Both the position numbers and the translations under genes were made by a program. This document shows positions 942 through 59,596 of a stretch of 64,000 nt of DNA, piece after piece. The notes under the pieces were generated by a model that was not told where the DNA came from, searched no databases, and was given only the letters and a program-made list of their open reading frames with translations. The number at the start of each line of letters is the position of its first letter. The stretch's first letter is position 1. The DNA comes from Candidatus Daviesbacteria bacterium. GTDB taxonomy: Bacteria > Patescibacteriota > Microgenomatia > Daviesbacterales > UBA10151. The DNA is taken from assembly GCA_028715175.1 (NCBI GenBank), contig JAQUSJ010000002.1:92117-156116 (forward strand), in the 5' to 3' direction.

Positions 942-1056
942 AGCTATCAGCTATCAGTCTTCAGTCGTCAGACAATTGCAATTTAAGTCTGAAAGCTGAC
1001 AGCTGAGAGCGAAACCGCGCCAAAGGCGGGCGAAGCGGTACTGACCGACTATTACT
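942..1056. repeat. Family-A heptad palindromic element, atpF|atpH junction
   Basis: tagctatcagctatcagtcttcagtcgtcagac-loop-gtctgaaagctgacagctgagagc, then gaagcggtactgaccgactattact directly before the ATG. Confidence 0.8.
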
Positions 1057-1545
1057 ATGGATCAAGAAATACTAAACATTATCCTAAAAGACACTTATTC
1101 CCTATCCCAGCTAAAGCACAGGCTGAGGATCTTAAAGTCTAACCTGCTAAAAACTTTTTTCGGAGGCGAGAACAATCAAACTTTAAGTTCCACTGCCCGG
1201 GATCTAAACTGGCTACAGTCACTGCCAGATAGCTTTTACCGAAAATTTAACAAGGATAATGTCTATCAGATTCTTACCGGCCTGGAAAAAGGAATTTCCG
1301 GGTTACCTGCTCTCACGATGTATCTTACATTTGAACCGGACGATGCAACTTTAAATCAAATCGGCTCTGTTGCAAGAAAAACATTTAATTCCCCCTTCTT
1401 AATTTTAGACATTAAACTTAATCCCAATTTAATTGCCGGAGCAGCCTTAGTTTGGAAAGGGGTATACAGAGATTATTCGCTTAGAGCAAAGGTCGAAAGC
1501 AGAAAACTTGAAATTATTGATGGATTTAAGAAGTTCCTTAGATGA
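1057..1545 (+). CDS. atpH: ATP synthase subunit delta (OSCP)-like
   Basis: 162 aa, immediately upstream of alpha with a 9-nt gap. Call rests on size and position; similarity is weak. Confidence 0.45.
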   Translation: MDQEILNIILKDTYSLSQLKHRLRILKSNLLKTFFGGENNQTLSSTARDLNWLQSLPDSFYRKFNKDNVYQILTGLEKGISGLPALTMYLTFEPDDATLNQIGSVARKTFNSPFLILDIKLNPNLIAGAALVWKGVYRDYSLRAKVESRKLEIIDGFKKFLR

Positions 1546-1554
1546 TTTTGAATT

Positions 1555-3009
1555 ATGAATAATCAACAAAATGAGGTTGGATATGTTGTATCTTCAAGGA
1601 ATTTTCTGGTTCAACTCGATGGATTGCCTTCGATCAAAATCAATGATATGGTGCAATCCGAAACTAATCTCCGGGGATGGGTTAACTCTGTTTCCGAAAC
1701 CCAAGTTGAGGTGTTAATGGTTGACGAAGGAACAATTAAACCCAGGCAGCAATTTAAACGTCTCCGTTCCCGCCTGGGAGTAATGGCAGGAGATTATTTA
1801 ATGGGGCGGGCAATAAACCCCTTGGGGGTACCGATTGATGGCAAAGGCTTGCTTTCTAAAACTCAAGTCAGTCCTATTATGGAGCTTGATGCTGAAGCTC
1901 CCGGAATCGAGTCCCGTGAATTCATCAAGACACAATTTCTAACAGGCATTACTTTAATTGATACCTTAATCCCTCTTGGCCGGGGACAGCGGGAACTTGT
2001 CTTAGGCGATGCCCATTCCGGCAAAACAGGATTTTTAACCGATATTATCATTAACCAGAAAAATACAGGCACCATTTGCATTTTGGCCCTGGTAGGAAAA
2101 CCGGCAGTGACGGTCAGAGATTTGATTGATACGCTGCGGCTCAATAAAGCTCTTGATTACACTGTTATAATCGCTACCTCCTCTTCTGAACCTGCGCCGC
2201 TGATTTTTTTGACCCCAAAAACTGCCTTTACGGTTGCGGAATACTTTCAAAAAAAGGGCAAAAACGTTCTCCTGGTCCTGGATGACTTGGGTTCTCATGC
2301 CAAGATTTACCGAGAGATTGCGCTCCTTGGGAACAAATCACCCGGGAGGGAATCTTATCCTGGAGACATCTTTTATCAGCATGCCCATCTTTTAGAACGA
2401 GCCGGTAATTTTACTCCAAAATATGGCGGAGGTTCTATAACCGCTCTCCCTGTGATAGAGCTGAACTTAACCGACTTCACGACCTTAATTCCTACAAACC
2501 TTATGTCAATGACAGACGGACATCTTCTTTTTAAGGCGGGTTTACGATCGCAAGGACAAATTCCGGCTGTGGACATTTCATTATCTGTTTCAAGAGTAGG
2601 CAGACAAACGCAAGACCATGTCAGCAACCTGCTTTCTACAAGAGTCAGACAGGTGCTATCTGCCGCAGCAGATTTGGAAACAATTTCAAGATTCAGCAGT
2701 GAACTACCGCTCGCAACACAGTTAATCCTCCGGCGGCGGGAGTTAATTATGGAAATCTTGAAGCAAGAACCGCTAACCGCAGTACCAAAACAAATCCAGT
2801 TAATACTCCTGGCGCTTCCTTTCACAACCTTTTTACAGGATAAAAACAGAGGATTTATCGAGAAATACAAACAAACTATCATTGAAGCTTTTTCAAAAAA
2901 TCCTGCTCTGCTGCCAATTACCAAAACCGTTGCTGCTCTTAAAACAGACGAGGAACTAATTAAACTGCTGGAAGGAGCAGGACCAATTCTGGCAAAACTT
3001 TGCCAGTAG
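1555..3009 (+). CDS. atpA: ATP synthase subunit alpha
   Basis: GRAINPLGVPIDGKG and P-loop GDAHSGKT (alpha-type, noncatalytic), with PVIELNLTDF-like segments; 484 aa. Confidence 0.85.
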   Translation: MNNQQNEVGYVVSSRNFLVQLDGLPSIKINDMVQSETNLRGWVNSVSETQVEVLMVDEGTIKPRQQFKRLRSRLGVMAGDYLMGRAINPLGVPIDGKGLLSKTQVSPIMELDAEAPGIESREFIKTQFLTGITLIDTLIPLGRGQRELVLGDAHSGKTGFLTDIIINQKNTGTICILALVGKPAVTVRDLIDTLRLNKALDYTVIIATSSSEPAPLIFLTPKTAFTVAEYFQKKGKNVLLVLDDLGSHAKIYREIALLGNKSPGRESYPGDIFYQHAHLLERAGNFTPKYGGGSITALPVIELNLTDFTTLIPTNLMSMTDGHLLFKAGLRSQGQIPAVDISLSVSRVGRQTQDHVSNLLSTRVRQVLSAAADLETISRFSSELPLATQLILRRRELIMEILKQEPLTAVPKQIQLILLALPFTTFLQDKNRGFIEKYKQTIIEAFSKNPALLPITKTVAALKTDEELIKLLEGAGPILAKLCQ

Positions 3010-58301: not shown

Positions 58302-58360
58302 GTGTCATAATTTACCACATCAGCAGCTTGCATGCACTGTTTGTGGTAAAATTGGCTTTT

Positions 58361-59551
58361 ATGAAAAACAAGATATCTCTTCGTGACTTTAAAAATGCCC
58401 AAGCAAGACGCAAGTTTTTAGAGGAGCAGTTAAATATAAAACTAGATAATATCAGCAATTTTACTTTTACAGAGGATCAAGCTGTTGGCAGAAATATTGA
58501 GAATTTAGTGGGTGCCACCCAAATCCCTTTGGGAGTGGCAGGACCATTGAGAATCCACCTCGAAGGAGTCAAGGCCCACCTTCGAGGTGTTTTTAGGGAT
58601 TATTATATTCCTCTAGCAACCACCGAAGGAGCATTGGTGGCCTCAGTTTCCCGAGGTTGCAAAGCCATCAATAAAGCCGGCGGAGCAACTGTATTTGTAG
58701 AAAATGTCGGGATTACCCGCGGGCCGGTTTTTAAAGCCAAAAATTTAGGTGAAGCTTTAAGAGCTGAAATTTGGATAGAAAAAAATTTTAAAGAACTTGC
58801 AAAAATAGCCGAGTCAACTTCCTCTCATTTAAAACTGTTAAAAGCTGAATCCCGGGTTGTTGGCAGAAATTTATTTGTCAGATTTTATTTTGATACAAAG
58901 GATGCCATGGGCATGAATATGGCTACTTTCGCTACAGAGCAAGCAGCTAAATTAATCGAGCAAAAAACCAAAGTTATATGCGTTTCACTGGCCGGTAATT
59001 TTGATATAGATAAAAAACCTGCCTGGCTTAACTTCATCAATGGGCGCGGAAAAAAAGTTTGGGCCGAAATAGTTTTACCTGAGAAAATAGTGGCTGACGT
59101 TCTTAAAACTACCCCCGGAAAAATAGTAGAGGTGGTGGAAAGAAAATGCCATCTGGGCGGAGTAATGTCAGGATCACTCGGATTTAATGCTCATTTTGCC
59201 AATATTATAGCTGCTGTTTTTACTTCAACCGGCCAGGATCTGGCTCATGTGGTGGAAGGCAGTTTAGGAGTTACCTCAACCGAGATCTTAGAAAATGGTG
59301 ATCTTTCTTTTTCCGTATACCTCCCCTCTTTGATAGCCGGCACTGTTGGCGGGGGGACGCATCTGCCTGCTCAGCAGGAAGCTTTGGGGATAATGCAAGT
59401 ATCTGATGTGCTAGAATATTCGCAAGTTTTGGGAGGTGCAGTTTTGGCCGGTGAACTTTCACTTTTGGCATCTTTGGCAGAAGGATCTCTTGCAAAAGCA
59501 CACAAAAAGCTAGGAAGGAAAAAAGCTATCAGTCTTCAGCTATCAGACTAA
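58361..59551 (+). CDS. HMG-CoA reductase, class I-like (start moved to MKNKIS; ORF track 58220 would overlap the divergent upstream gene)
   Basis: ENLVGATQIPLGVAGPLRI; YYIPLATTEGALVASVSRGCKAI; DAMGMNM; GTVGGGT. Confidence 0.85.
   Translation: MKNKISLRDFKNAQARRKFLEEQLNIKLDNISNFTFTEDQAVGRNIENLVGATQIPLGVAGPLRIHLEGVKAHLRGVFRDYYIPLATTEGALVASVSRGCKAINKAGGATVFVENVGITRGPVFKAKNLGEALRAEIWIEKNFKELAKIAESTSSHLKLLKAESRVVGRNLFVRFYFDTKDAMGMNMATFATEQAAKLIEQKTKVICVSLAGNFDIDKKPAWLNFINGRGKKVWAEIVLPEKIVADVLKTTPGKIVEVVERKCHLGGVMSGSLGFNAHFANIIAAVFTSTGQDLAHVVEGSLGVTSTEILENGDLSFSVYLPSLIAGTVGGGTHLPAQQEALGIMQVSDVLEYSQVLGGAVLAGELSLLASLAEGSLAKAHKKLGRKKAISLQLSD
58555..58589. repeat. Family-D hairpin in opposite orientation, in frame in the HMG-CoA reductase gene (HLEGVKAHLRGV)
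   Basis: cacctcgaaggagtcaaggcccaccttcgaggtg; its loop agtcaaggccca is the reverse complement of the tgggccttgact loop at 18741. Confidence 0.7.
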
Positions 59552-59596
59552 GAAATACTAGTCTGATGACTGAAAGCTGACGGCTGACGACTACTT
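59524..59596. repeat. Family-A element at the HMGR|HMGS junction; encodes the last 8 residues (AISLQLSD) and the TAA stop of HMGR, and abuts the HMGS ATG
   Basis: agctatcagtcttcagctatcagacTAAgaaatactagtctgatgactgaaagctgacggctgacgactactt ATG. Confidence 0.8.

Follow-up and report, generated by a model that had tools for sequence, protein, structure and literature searches.

Heptad-built palindromes at the cistron junctions of a Daviesbacteria genome: probable miniature copies of a PF05635 cassette

Why should the stop codon of one gene, a hairpin and the start codon of the next so often come as a single unit in a stretch of bacterial DNA? The stretch considered here, hereafter the window, is 64,000 nucleotides (nt) of contig JAQUSJ010000002.1 from a Candidatus Daviesbacteria bacterium, and the unit is a palindromic element built of heptads, family A, copies of which lie between consecutive cistrons of the ATP synthase operon and elsewhere. 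The answer favored here is that family A probably consists of dispersed miniature copies, about 77 nt long and lacking an open reading frame (ORF), of a selfish cassette of the intervening sequence (IVS) type that encodes a PF05635 protein. The reason is twofold: the same arms enclose a PF05635 gene in related Daviesbacteria, and PF05635 genes generally have flanks with a period of 7 nt. In the miniature copies the arms have been kept and the ORF lost, and the sites they occupy are cistron spacers of a few nt, spacers of convergent genes, an rRNA leader, the loop of 23S rRNA helix 25 and coding sequence, where they lie in frame with one frame open.

The arms and the gene between them

A scan for full copies, defined by CAG or CTG every 7 nt, was run on the window together with 89 loci of other genomes (716 kb; loci are cited below by handles such as L061) and gave 102 full copies, to which the copy counts below refer. 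Their layout is five CAGNNNT units, an A/T loop and five ANNNCTG units with a median length of 77 nt; there are five NAG-N4 units on the 5' side in 81 of the 102 and five N4-CTN units on the 3' side in 71. The outermost unit is TAG in 63 copies and the last is CTA in 60, the element ends reading (A/G)TAG...CTA(C/T). The loop, put at 11-13 nt in a preliminary description of the window, ranges from 11 to 23 nt. That description's figure of at least 16 copies per 64 kb stands, heptad-run scans of the window giving 12 full and 4 partial copies; the core CAGAC-N9-15-GTCTG occurs there 10 times versus 0.22 expected from shuffles. No Rfam family matches the element, the matches in the window being to rRNA and tRNA only.

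In two loci (L061:6731-7129 and L020:2523-2920) what look like two 'half' arms 352 nt apart are one element, with family A arms around a 121-codon ORF that has its ATG directly behind CAGAC or CAGAT and runs to its end (..SLKADS*) within the 3' arm. Its product matches Pfam PF05635, "23S rRNA intervening sequence protein", with an E-value of 8e-37. This full-length form is ~430 nt, with about five CAGNNNT units 5', about five ANNNCTG units 3' and, frequently, a GCGAAGCG side hairpin. In a third full-length copy (L095/L098), which has a GCGAAGCGATA branch, the opening TAG terminates the upstream gene and the element ends ...GATAGCTATT just before the ATG of smpB. Short copies are identical to the full-length arms at 28-29 of 33 positions in the 5' arm and 38-40 of 50 in the 3' arm. 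The protein has 2796 homologs in the protein database, the close ones, from Daviesbacteria, Gottesmanbacteria and Anaerolineae, bearing the name four-helix-bundle protein. To our knowledge, PF05635 or S23p proteins have been without a known function for some 30 years.

The likeness to IVSs goes beyond the protein. That of Coxiella burnetii is a 428-nt selfish element in 23S helix 45, with a 28-bp terminal stem around an S23p ORF. GACAGAT heptamers are reported to stand in tandem before the S23p ATG, two or three depending on the strain, and RNase III to cleave the stem at the first of them (PMC4990558). A survey of rRNA insertions in the candidate phyla radiation (CPR) describes PF05635 ORFs, function unknown, in both 16S and 23S insertions (PMC11270868). 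In the limited library consulted no account came up of heptad arrays as a general feature, of dispersed ORF-less copies or of insertions of IVS-type elements at junctions or in coding sequence, which is weak evidence that they have gone undescribed.

Are heptads general to PF05635 genes? A sample of 15 was taken from Daviesbacteria, Gottesmanbacteria, Omnitrophota, Anaerolineae, Nostoc, Calothrix and Riemerella. A lag of 7 is the best period in 13 of 15 upstream and 13 of 15 downstream flanks versus 35 of 300 random sites, and the upstream and downstream arrays match each other at 17 or more of 21 positions for 9 of the 15 genes, the random maximum being 16. All the further PF05635 genes that were reached have inverted heptad arrays in their flanks, with heptads that differ from cassette to cassette:

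Window 34421-34789, minus strand: PF05635 gene (E 3.6e-21) in the 23S-5S rRNA spacer; inverted TCAGAAN / NTTCTGA arrays in the flanks 34340-34420 and 34790-34860
Window 19211-19789, plus strand: 192-amino-acid ORF just past the 4397-amino-acid 'giant' ORF; weak PF05635 similarity (tblastn 2e-4); GACCTAT/GACAGAT heptads inside and around it
L085, Omnitrophota: PF05635 gene; heptads TAGACCA/TGGTCTA
L003, Gottesmanbacteria: PF05635 gene; heptads GAGAATG/CATTCTC
L075: PF05635 gene; heptads TAGAAGG
L091, Anaerolineae: PF05635 gene between nuoCD and nuoF; heptads CAGAACA
L094: PF05635 gene; 14 units CAGCTAT/TAGCTTT
L103, Nostoc punctiforme plasmid: PF05635 gene; TCAGGAG x8 / CTCCTGA
L104, Riemerella: PF05635 gene ahead of sufB; heptads TTCAAGG/CCTTGAA

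The GACAGAT heptad at window 19211-19789 is the very heptamer reported for the Coxiella IVS. Several PF05635 cassettes fit tightly between a stop and a start codon. In a plasmid collection the PF05635 matches are dominated by Nostoc and other heterocystous cyanobacteria, and plasmid pNPUN01 of Nostoc punctiforme (L105; 960-1089, 1555-2003, 44799-44885 and 46625-46820) has a four-helix-bundle gene between (TCAGGAG)n and (CTCCTGA)n with ORF-less intergenic heptad hairpins nearby; within its first 50 kb one such hairpin is made of the CAGGAGT units of the neighboring cassette.

Copies in the window and their turnover

The 16 copies of the window are as follows:

941..1051, plus strand: full copy whose 3' arm bears a large side-branch hairpin (~1006-1036), between an atpF-like ORF (TAA 937-939) and an atpH-like ORF (ATG 1057)
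3007..3094, plus strand: full copy with GCGAAGCGGTA side branch; first TAG (3007-3009) is the atpA stop, atpG ATG at 3097, 2 nt past the terminal CTA
3961..4037, plus strand: full copy; TAG 3961-3963 is the atpG stop, atpD ATG at 4041; GGAGG motif 8 nt ahead of the element
5472..5548, plus strand: full copy; TAG 5472-5474 is the atpD stop, atpC ATG at 5551; same sub-type at this junction in L035 and L079
17930..18017, plus strand: full copy of the side-branch type, in frame in the 4397-amino-acid ORF; translation ..QSSAISRTENSLTADSEAVL..
18412..18505, plus strand: degenerate full copy, in frame in the same ORF (..SLTADSRQL..)
23684..23762, minus strand: full copy 3' of rho; terminal CTA (23760-23762) is on the minus strand the rho TAG stop; an M23 peptidase gene is next
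28197..28273, minus strand: full copy; stop of the PIN-TRAM gene (minus-strand TAG, 28268-28270) within the last unit
30919..31010, minus strand: full copy of the side-branch type, in frame in radA directly after Walker A; 30 amino acids more than the L061 ortholog
31208..31237, minus strand: half copy with 4 CTG units, in radA between the zinc ribbon and the ATPase domain
37945..38033, minus strand: full copy in the terminal loop of 23S rRNA helix 25, flanked by additional helix arms; L062 filled at the same site
41122..41154, minus strand: half copy (CTGATGA x4), in frame in pgk; 8 amino acids more (SSVISHQS) than the L025 ortholog
45030..45107, minus strand: full copy in the 16S rRNA leader; same sub-type (loop TTTCTTGCRATTG) at that place in L046 and L064
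50383..50412, minus strand: half copy, in frame near the N-terminus of a SpoU-type methylase ORF (..KSSQSSAISRQ..)
56496..56573, no strand assigned: full copy where the PA14-domain gene and uppS converge; copies with other loops and arms at the L083 and L050 junctions
59523..59593, plus strand: full copy of 4+5 units; the HMG-CoA reductase ORF passes the 5' arm and stops at the loop TAA (59549-59551), HMG-CoA synthase-like ATG at 59597

Among the neighbors Pfam confirms atpA, atpG, atpD, atpC, rho, the PIN-TRAM gene, radA, pgk, uppS, HMG-CoA reductase and the HMG-CoA synthase-like gene. Four of the full copies are intragenic: radA and the 23S rRNA gene have one each and the giant ORF has two. 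The three partial copies in coding sequence are all in frame. The copy in helix 25, a classic IVS site, interrupts the loop at positions ~583/584 of the large subunit rRNA model, and the remaining 15 copies are elsewhere. Further, a small side hairpin is present in the arm adjoining the downstream gene at window 1006-1036, 3071-3085, 17990-18003 and 30940-30955. Simple copies have GCGAAGCG here, the first copy (1006-1036) CCGCGCC-AAAG-GCGGG, and L036, L068, L075 and L082 have differing yet self-pairing versions of the hairpin; its orientation is that of transcription in four of four window cases. The three full copies in radA and the giant ORF share one reading frame (..SL-x-ADS..), which stays open in radA and in one of the giant-ORF copies because the GCGAAGCG side branch shifts the heptad phase.

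Whether the family is confined to this genome was addressed with an exact-pattern scan of one genome per species, the window's own genome being outside that set, which yielded the 89 loci. They come from at least ten Daviesbacteria metagenome-assembled genomes (MAGs) and relatives, and otherwise from eight MAGs titled 'uncultured Gammaproteobacteria', from Gottesmanbacteria, from another Patescibacteria MAG and, with somewhat different units, from Omnitrophota, Chloroflexi and a few others. The MAGs so titled include L005, L010, L012, L014, L019, L025 and L035 (CAYQAW01, CAYNFQ01, CAZDEH01 and others). The title looks wrong for CAYQAW01 and CAYNFQ01 at least, since their atp proteins match those of the Daviesbacteria window at 54-81% identity (74-81% for atpA and atpD), and the CAYQAW01 rRNA matches too. 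Occupancy of the atp junctions varies between these genomes:

atpF/atpH: window, L035 and L033 filled; L014 empty (TAGCTATG)
atpH/atpA: window empty, L035 filled, L033 empty, L014 with a different heptad hairpin
atpA/atpG: window, L035 and L014 filled; L033 empty (TAGCCTATG)
atpG/atpD: window with family A; L035 with a TAGAAGN-heptad hairpin; L033 with a short non-heptad repeat (GATTTATGAA twice); L014 with nothing
atpD/atpC: window filled; L035 and L079 filled with the same sub-type; L033 sequence not recovered

The convergent PA14/uppS junction has three different loops in three genomes, and the 30-residue radA insert is missing from the 66%-identical L061 ortholog. Presence or absence at atp junctions, in-frame inserts in radA and pgk, the copy in helix 25 and the convergent, divergent and intragenic contexts are the behavior of a selfish element. 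It is not that of a recent burst or of homogenization in one genome, as identity among copies is similar within a genome (0.805) and between genomes (0.791). Carriage by phage was likewise discarded, with zero matches in 2.9 million viral contigs. The only public contig found with an identical atpC protein, the 2.6-kb Logan contig L090, starts ~60 nt before atpC, inside the element; short-read assemblies break at this repeat.

Family A has plenty of company. About half of the tandem-repeat calls that Tandem Repeats Finder makes in the window have a period of 7, 14 or 21, in many families. Other period-7 arrays or hairpins are at 29218-29336, 6256-6366, 17536-17664, 25159-25249, 44823-44911, 37226-37293, 38775-38974, 50142-50172, 57303-57337 and 61772-61837, with unrelated heptads such as CTCAAAA/TTTGAGA, TAGAAGA/CTTCTAT, GATGGAA/TCCATCA, ACTACGA and AACTAAT, and several are in the giant ORF, in the 23S gene or beside tRNA-Ala. 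The final 1.7 kb of the giant ORF (6010-19203, plus strand) contains at least four heptad-hairpin insertions, none of which closes the frame. Both the 23S (35022-38616) and 16S (42499-44798) rRNA genes, on the minus strand, have insertions with LAGLIDADG endonuclease ORFs (35759-36289 and 43040-43636, respectively), and the 16S gene matches its Rfam model in pieces only. HMG-CoA reductase of the mevalonate route and the HMG-CoA synthase-like gene (58220-60640, plus strand) adjoin uppS (56571-57287, minus strand) in this CPR-type genome.

Stops, starts and pairing: weighing the alternatives

What, then, of the stop and start codons that first drew attention to the element? Base by base, its first TAG is indeed the stop of atpA, atpG and atpD; the TAG stop of the PIN-TRAM gene, earlier called yacL-like, is the reverse complement of the terminal CTA; and the HMG-CoA reductase TAA overlaps the element as had been described, being in the loop after read-through of the 5' arm. 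The rho stop is also within the element, but it is a TAG, again the minus-strand complement of the terminal CTA, rather than the TAA first given. Similarly the ATGs of the atpH-like, atpG, atpD, atpC and HMG-CoA synthase-like genes come right behind the element though not abutting it, the gaps after the terminal CTA being 5, 2, 3, 2 and 3 nt. Over all copies the first triplet of the element is the host stop codon in 34 of 101 incoming ORFs and the host stop is 1-10 nt ahead of it in ~30 others, while about half of the outgoing ORFs have their first start codon at -1 to +6 nt relative to the far end. With the element subtracted, the residual spacer at co-directional junctions has a median of 6 nt (quartiles 2 and 28) versus 45 nt at those without a copy. 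The geometry is thus non-random, in and beyond the window; it is not as fixed as had been supposed, since besides 44 co-directional contexts there are 13 convergent, 8 divergent and 6 inside long ORFs, plus the helix 25 copy.

The stops need no purpose: they are built in. With CTGA repeated at intervals of 7 nt, a number not divisible by 3, each of the three frames meets a stop in the far arm (189 of 204 readings, both directions taken together), whereas the near arm, its terminal TAG aside, has no stop in any frame in 193 of 204, and the outermost units read TAG inward from both sides. A host ORF entering from either side therefore terminates at or within the element. As to the starts, the same tight fit is found in full-length cassettes of several phyla, and therefore either the cassette favors stop-start junctions when it inserts or insertions at other places are lost. 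If very short spacers between a stop and a start are preferred, or are where copies are retained, the fit would follow without a dedicated initiation device.

Such a device is nevertheless the best of the alternatives to the miniature-cassette reading, unlikely as we consider it: an intercistronic RNA structure kept by selection, with a stop at the 5' foot and a start at the 3' foot, that would serve coupling or re-initiation (shunt-like), or mRNA processing or stability, in an organism with few Shine-Dalgarno (SD) sites. The stop and start frequencies and the small residual spacer just given would fit it, as would the recurrence of the geometry in full-length cassettes of other phyla and the same sub-type at atpD/atpC in three genomes, the DNA there being only ~76% like that of the window in L079. 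Orientation, judged by the ends (AGCT... to ...GACT), is along transcription in 19-26 cases versus 5 against, a bias which the 8-kb loci do not separate from one of replication; in the window nine of ten orientable copies are alike on the plus strand regardless of gene strand. On the other side, the same junctions are empty or have unrelated heptad hairpins in relatives, copies also occupy rRNA, coding sequence and the junctions of convergent or divergent genes, and the parent form has its own gene.

Nor is there support for the proposal that the element stands in for a Shine-Dalgarno sequence. The 16S rRNA 3' end, ...GGATCACCTCCTTTCT, carries the CCUCC anti-SD, and an SD-like motif at -5 to -15 is present in only ~3 of 40 window genes, leaders being short and A/T-rich. 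With SD motifs so scarce across genes, their absence at element junctions characterizes the genome at large rather than the element. Could the hairpin bring an upstream motif near the ATG? There is a GGAGG-like motif just ahead of ~10 of 59 copies; however, SD-like motifs ahead of the element are no commoner than at control ends (15 of 59 versus 26 of 131), and this linking role was set aside. A role as intrinsic terminator or promoter was also rejected: there are no such calls on copies and no terminator-like call on any atp-operon copy, where the stem has no T run after it, the tails reading CTATTATG and similar.

RNAfold gives -23 to -41 kcal/mol, with z of -2.8 to -6.9 against dinucleotide shuffles, for nine window copies (10 stretches, one folded on both strands). 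Of the complementary heptads described at the outset the TCAG/CTGA cores are invariant and paired, but positions 4-6 of the units are systematically not Watson-Crick paired. When CAGAC/GTCTG sets the register, 248 of the 346 rungs at position 4 are C.A or U.G, as are 243 of the 346 at position 5; at position 6 Watson-Crick pairs are, if anything, under-represented. CAGCTNT is opposite ANGACTG, or the reverse, in 226 rungs, and only 42 rungs have two units of one type. The compensatory changes expected earlier were sought in a gap-free alignment of 54 copies with 500 shuffles and are absent: 79.0% of cells are paired versus 83.6 +/- 0.5% in shuffles, the score is 0.053 versus 0.137, and all 500 shuffles equal or exceed the observed value. 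This also counts against the RNA device. Arms of the other heptad families are plainly complementary, unlike those of family A. Pairing in trans between copies was rejected, there being no perfect partner for any arm and a copy's own arm being the least complementary, and so was a 7-nt register shift as the source of the mismatches, RNAfold choosing the shifted register in just 2 of 10 folds.

If pairing is not what is conserved, is it the spacing? The heptad arrays might be binding sites for a ring-shaped PF05635 protein, each (NAG-N4)5 arm wrapping around a homopentamer, the hairpin being secondary and the protein controlling mobility, processing or translation of copies in trans. The nearest solved structures, 2GSC and 2RLD, have five chains each, and Xanthomonas S23p is described as a homopentameric toroid (PMC4990558). 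The preponderance of five units per arm would go well with this, as would period-7 arrays beside PF05635 genes across phyla, the invariance of nothing but the NAG/CTN core and its spacing where would-be pairing positions are not kept complementary, and a sequence constraint equal within and between genomes. Yet other PF05635 cassettes have 3 to 14 units, the Coxiella study suggests that S23p is probably not made in vivo (PMC4990558), and the number five could be mere inheritance from a master copy; as an explanation of family A it seems quite improbable. Less probable still is a classical DNA repeat of the kind of a miniature inverted-repeat transposable element (MITE), or of repetitive extragenic palindromic (REP) sequences and the hairpins formed from them (REPINs), moved by a transposase encoded elsewhere, e.g. 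a REP-associated tyrosine transposase (RAYT) or a TA-targeting one, with the PF05635 gene as occasional cargo: terminal inverted repeats whose TAG...CTA ends would suit a TA duplication and recall the REP GTAG foot, presence/absence between relatives, and the like orientation on the plus strand that replication-tied single-strand transposition would give are outweighed by the lack of a resolved target-site duplication, of a transposase adjoining full-length copies and of any match in the viral contigs, and by the many unrelated heptad families that flank one protein family, pointing to PF05635 as core gene. The TA...TA ends fit a 2-bp duplication yet belong to the palindrome as well, and since the element ends are palindromic, comparison with the empty sites TAGCCTATG and TAGCTATG does not resolve one. 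The parent codes for PF05635 and for no known transposase.

For the miniature-cassette reading the steps that one would envisage are that the copies are transcribed together with their host genes, that the RNA forms an imperfect hairpin, looping the insert out, and that RNase III probably cuts this hairpin, by analogy with the IVSs of Coxiella, Salmonella and Leptospira; a cut at an operon junction would part one cistron from the next or define the ends of mRNAs. Relatives (L013, L056) encode RNase III homologs. Any RNA-level role is, on that analogy, most likely RNase III processing, though one in RNA processing or translational coupling is possible. Several observations weigh against this reading. 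No transposase, target-site duplication or other sign of a mobility mechanism was found, no search for RAYT having been made. There is no full-length family A cassette in the window, its two PF05635 genes having other heptads. Constraint seems to exceed that of neutral selfish DNA, with near-equal identity between and within genomes, about three-quarters of copies having 5+5 units, orientation biased along transcription and copies concentrated at the tightest junctions. Finally, arms that pair worse than randomly reassorted ones are odd for an RNase III stem.

Implications and known counterparts

IVSs have so far been treated as oddities of 23S rRNA. If family A is what we think it is, an IVS-type element acts as a general cassette with miniature offspring in operon junctions, rRNA and coding sequence of a ~1 Mb genome. 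That would give a concrete handle on PF05635 function (heptad-array binding, RNase III processing, junction preference), explain breaks in CPR assemblies at such sites, and advise caution in annotation, as stop codons, N- and C-termini and short inserts of CPR proteins can stem from such elements. A connection to the heptamer repeats of cyanobacteria is also possible. A more sweeping proposal, about which we are on the whole doubtful, is that a single, widespread class of mobile cassette, overlooked until now, unites PF05635 four-helix-bundle proteins with inverted heptad arrays: a pentameric ring would read (NAG-N4)n, with five units per arm in family A, and drive insertion or maintenance at stop-start junctions, and gene-less hairpins would be its non-autonomous satellites, among them this CPR family, rRNA IVSs and perhaps the short tandemly repeated repetitive (STRR) sequences of Nostoc and Anabaena, which have long lacked an explanation.

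Which known systems does family A recall? HutP reads NAG triplets spaced 4 nt and TRAP reads GAG repeats, both being ring-shaped oligomers. The (NAG-N4)5 array of the 5' arm resembles their targets by analogy only, and we know of no homology between PF05635 and either protein. STRRs are tandem heptamers, often in inverted arrays, in the spacers of heterocystous cyanobacteria; like family A they are tandem heptamers, though of different sequence, and from one 50-kb stretch of plasmid and single flanks of three other plasmid genes it seems that they may be linked to PF05635 cassettes.

REP sequences, bacterial interspersed mosaic elements and REPINs are extragenic palindromes in operon spacers with a (G)TAG-like foot, with effects on mRNA ends for REPs and movement by RAYT transposases for REPINs (PMC3116915). 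Family A shares palindromes in operon spacers and the TAG foot with REP/REPIN; it differs in being longer, periodic and also intragenic.

Rickettsia palindromic elements (RPEs) are palindromic repeats tolerated in frame in protein-coding genes and in RNA genes, and in such insertion family A is like them, differing in sequence family and host; we know of neither derivation from a PF05635 cassette nor a heptad build for RPEs. MITEs and the Correia elements (Neisseria miniature insertion sequences, NEMIS) are short and non-autonomous with inverted ends, many gene-adjacent co-transcribed copies, hairpins that RNase III can process, and presence/absence between relatives. Family A is likewise short, with inverted ends, dispersed beside genes and varying between relatives. 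Unlike them, its parent lacks a known transposase gene, there is no sequence relation, and the heptad build and all-frame stops are its own.

The closest counterparts are the 23S rRNA IVSs with S23p/PF05635 of the type of Coxiella burnetii, Leptospira and Xanthomonas, in which an inverted-repeat stem surrounds a PF05635 ORF of ~120 codons in ~430 nt total; they are regarded as selfish and their stem is cut by RNase III (PMC4990558). As in Coxiella, a variable number of tandem heptamers comes just before the ATG, and one copy in the window is in helix 25 of 23S rRNA. Unlike IVSs, most family A copies are ORF-less and outside rRNA, at cistron junctions, at gene ends and in frame in coding sequence, and their arms consist wholly of about five heptads with the middle of each heptad unpaired. 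On this reading family A belongs to that kind, an IVS/PF05635 selfish cassette, as miniature offspring that are both MITE-like and RPE-like.

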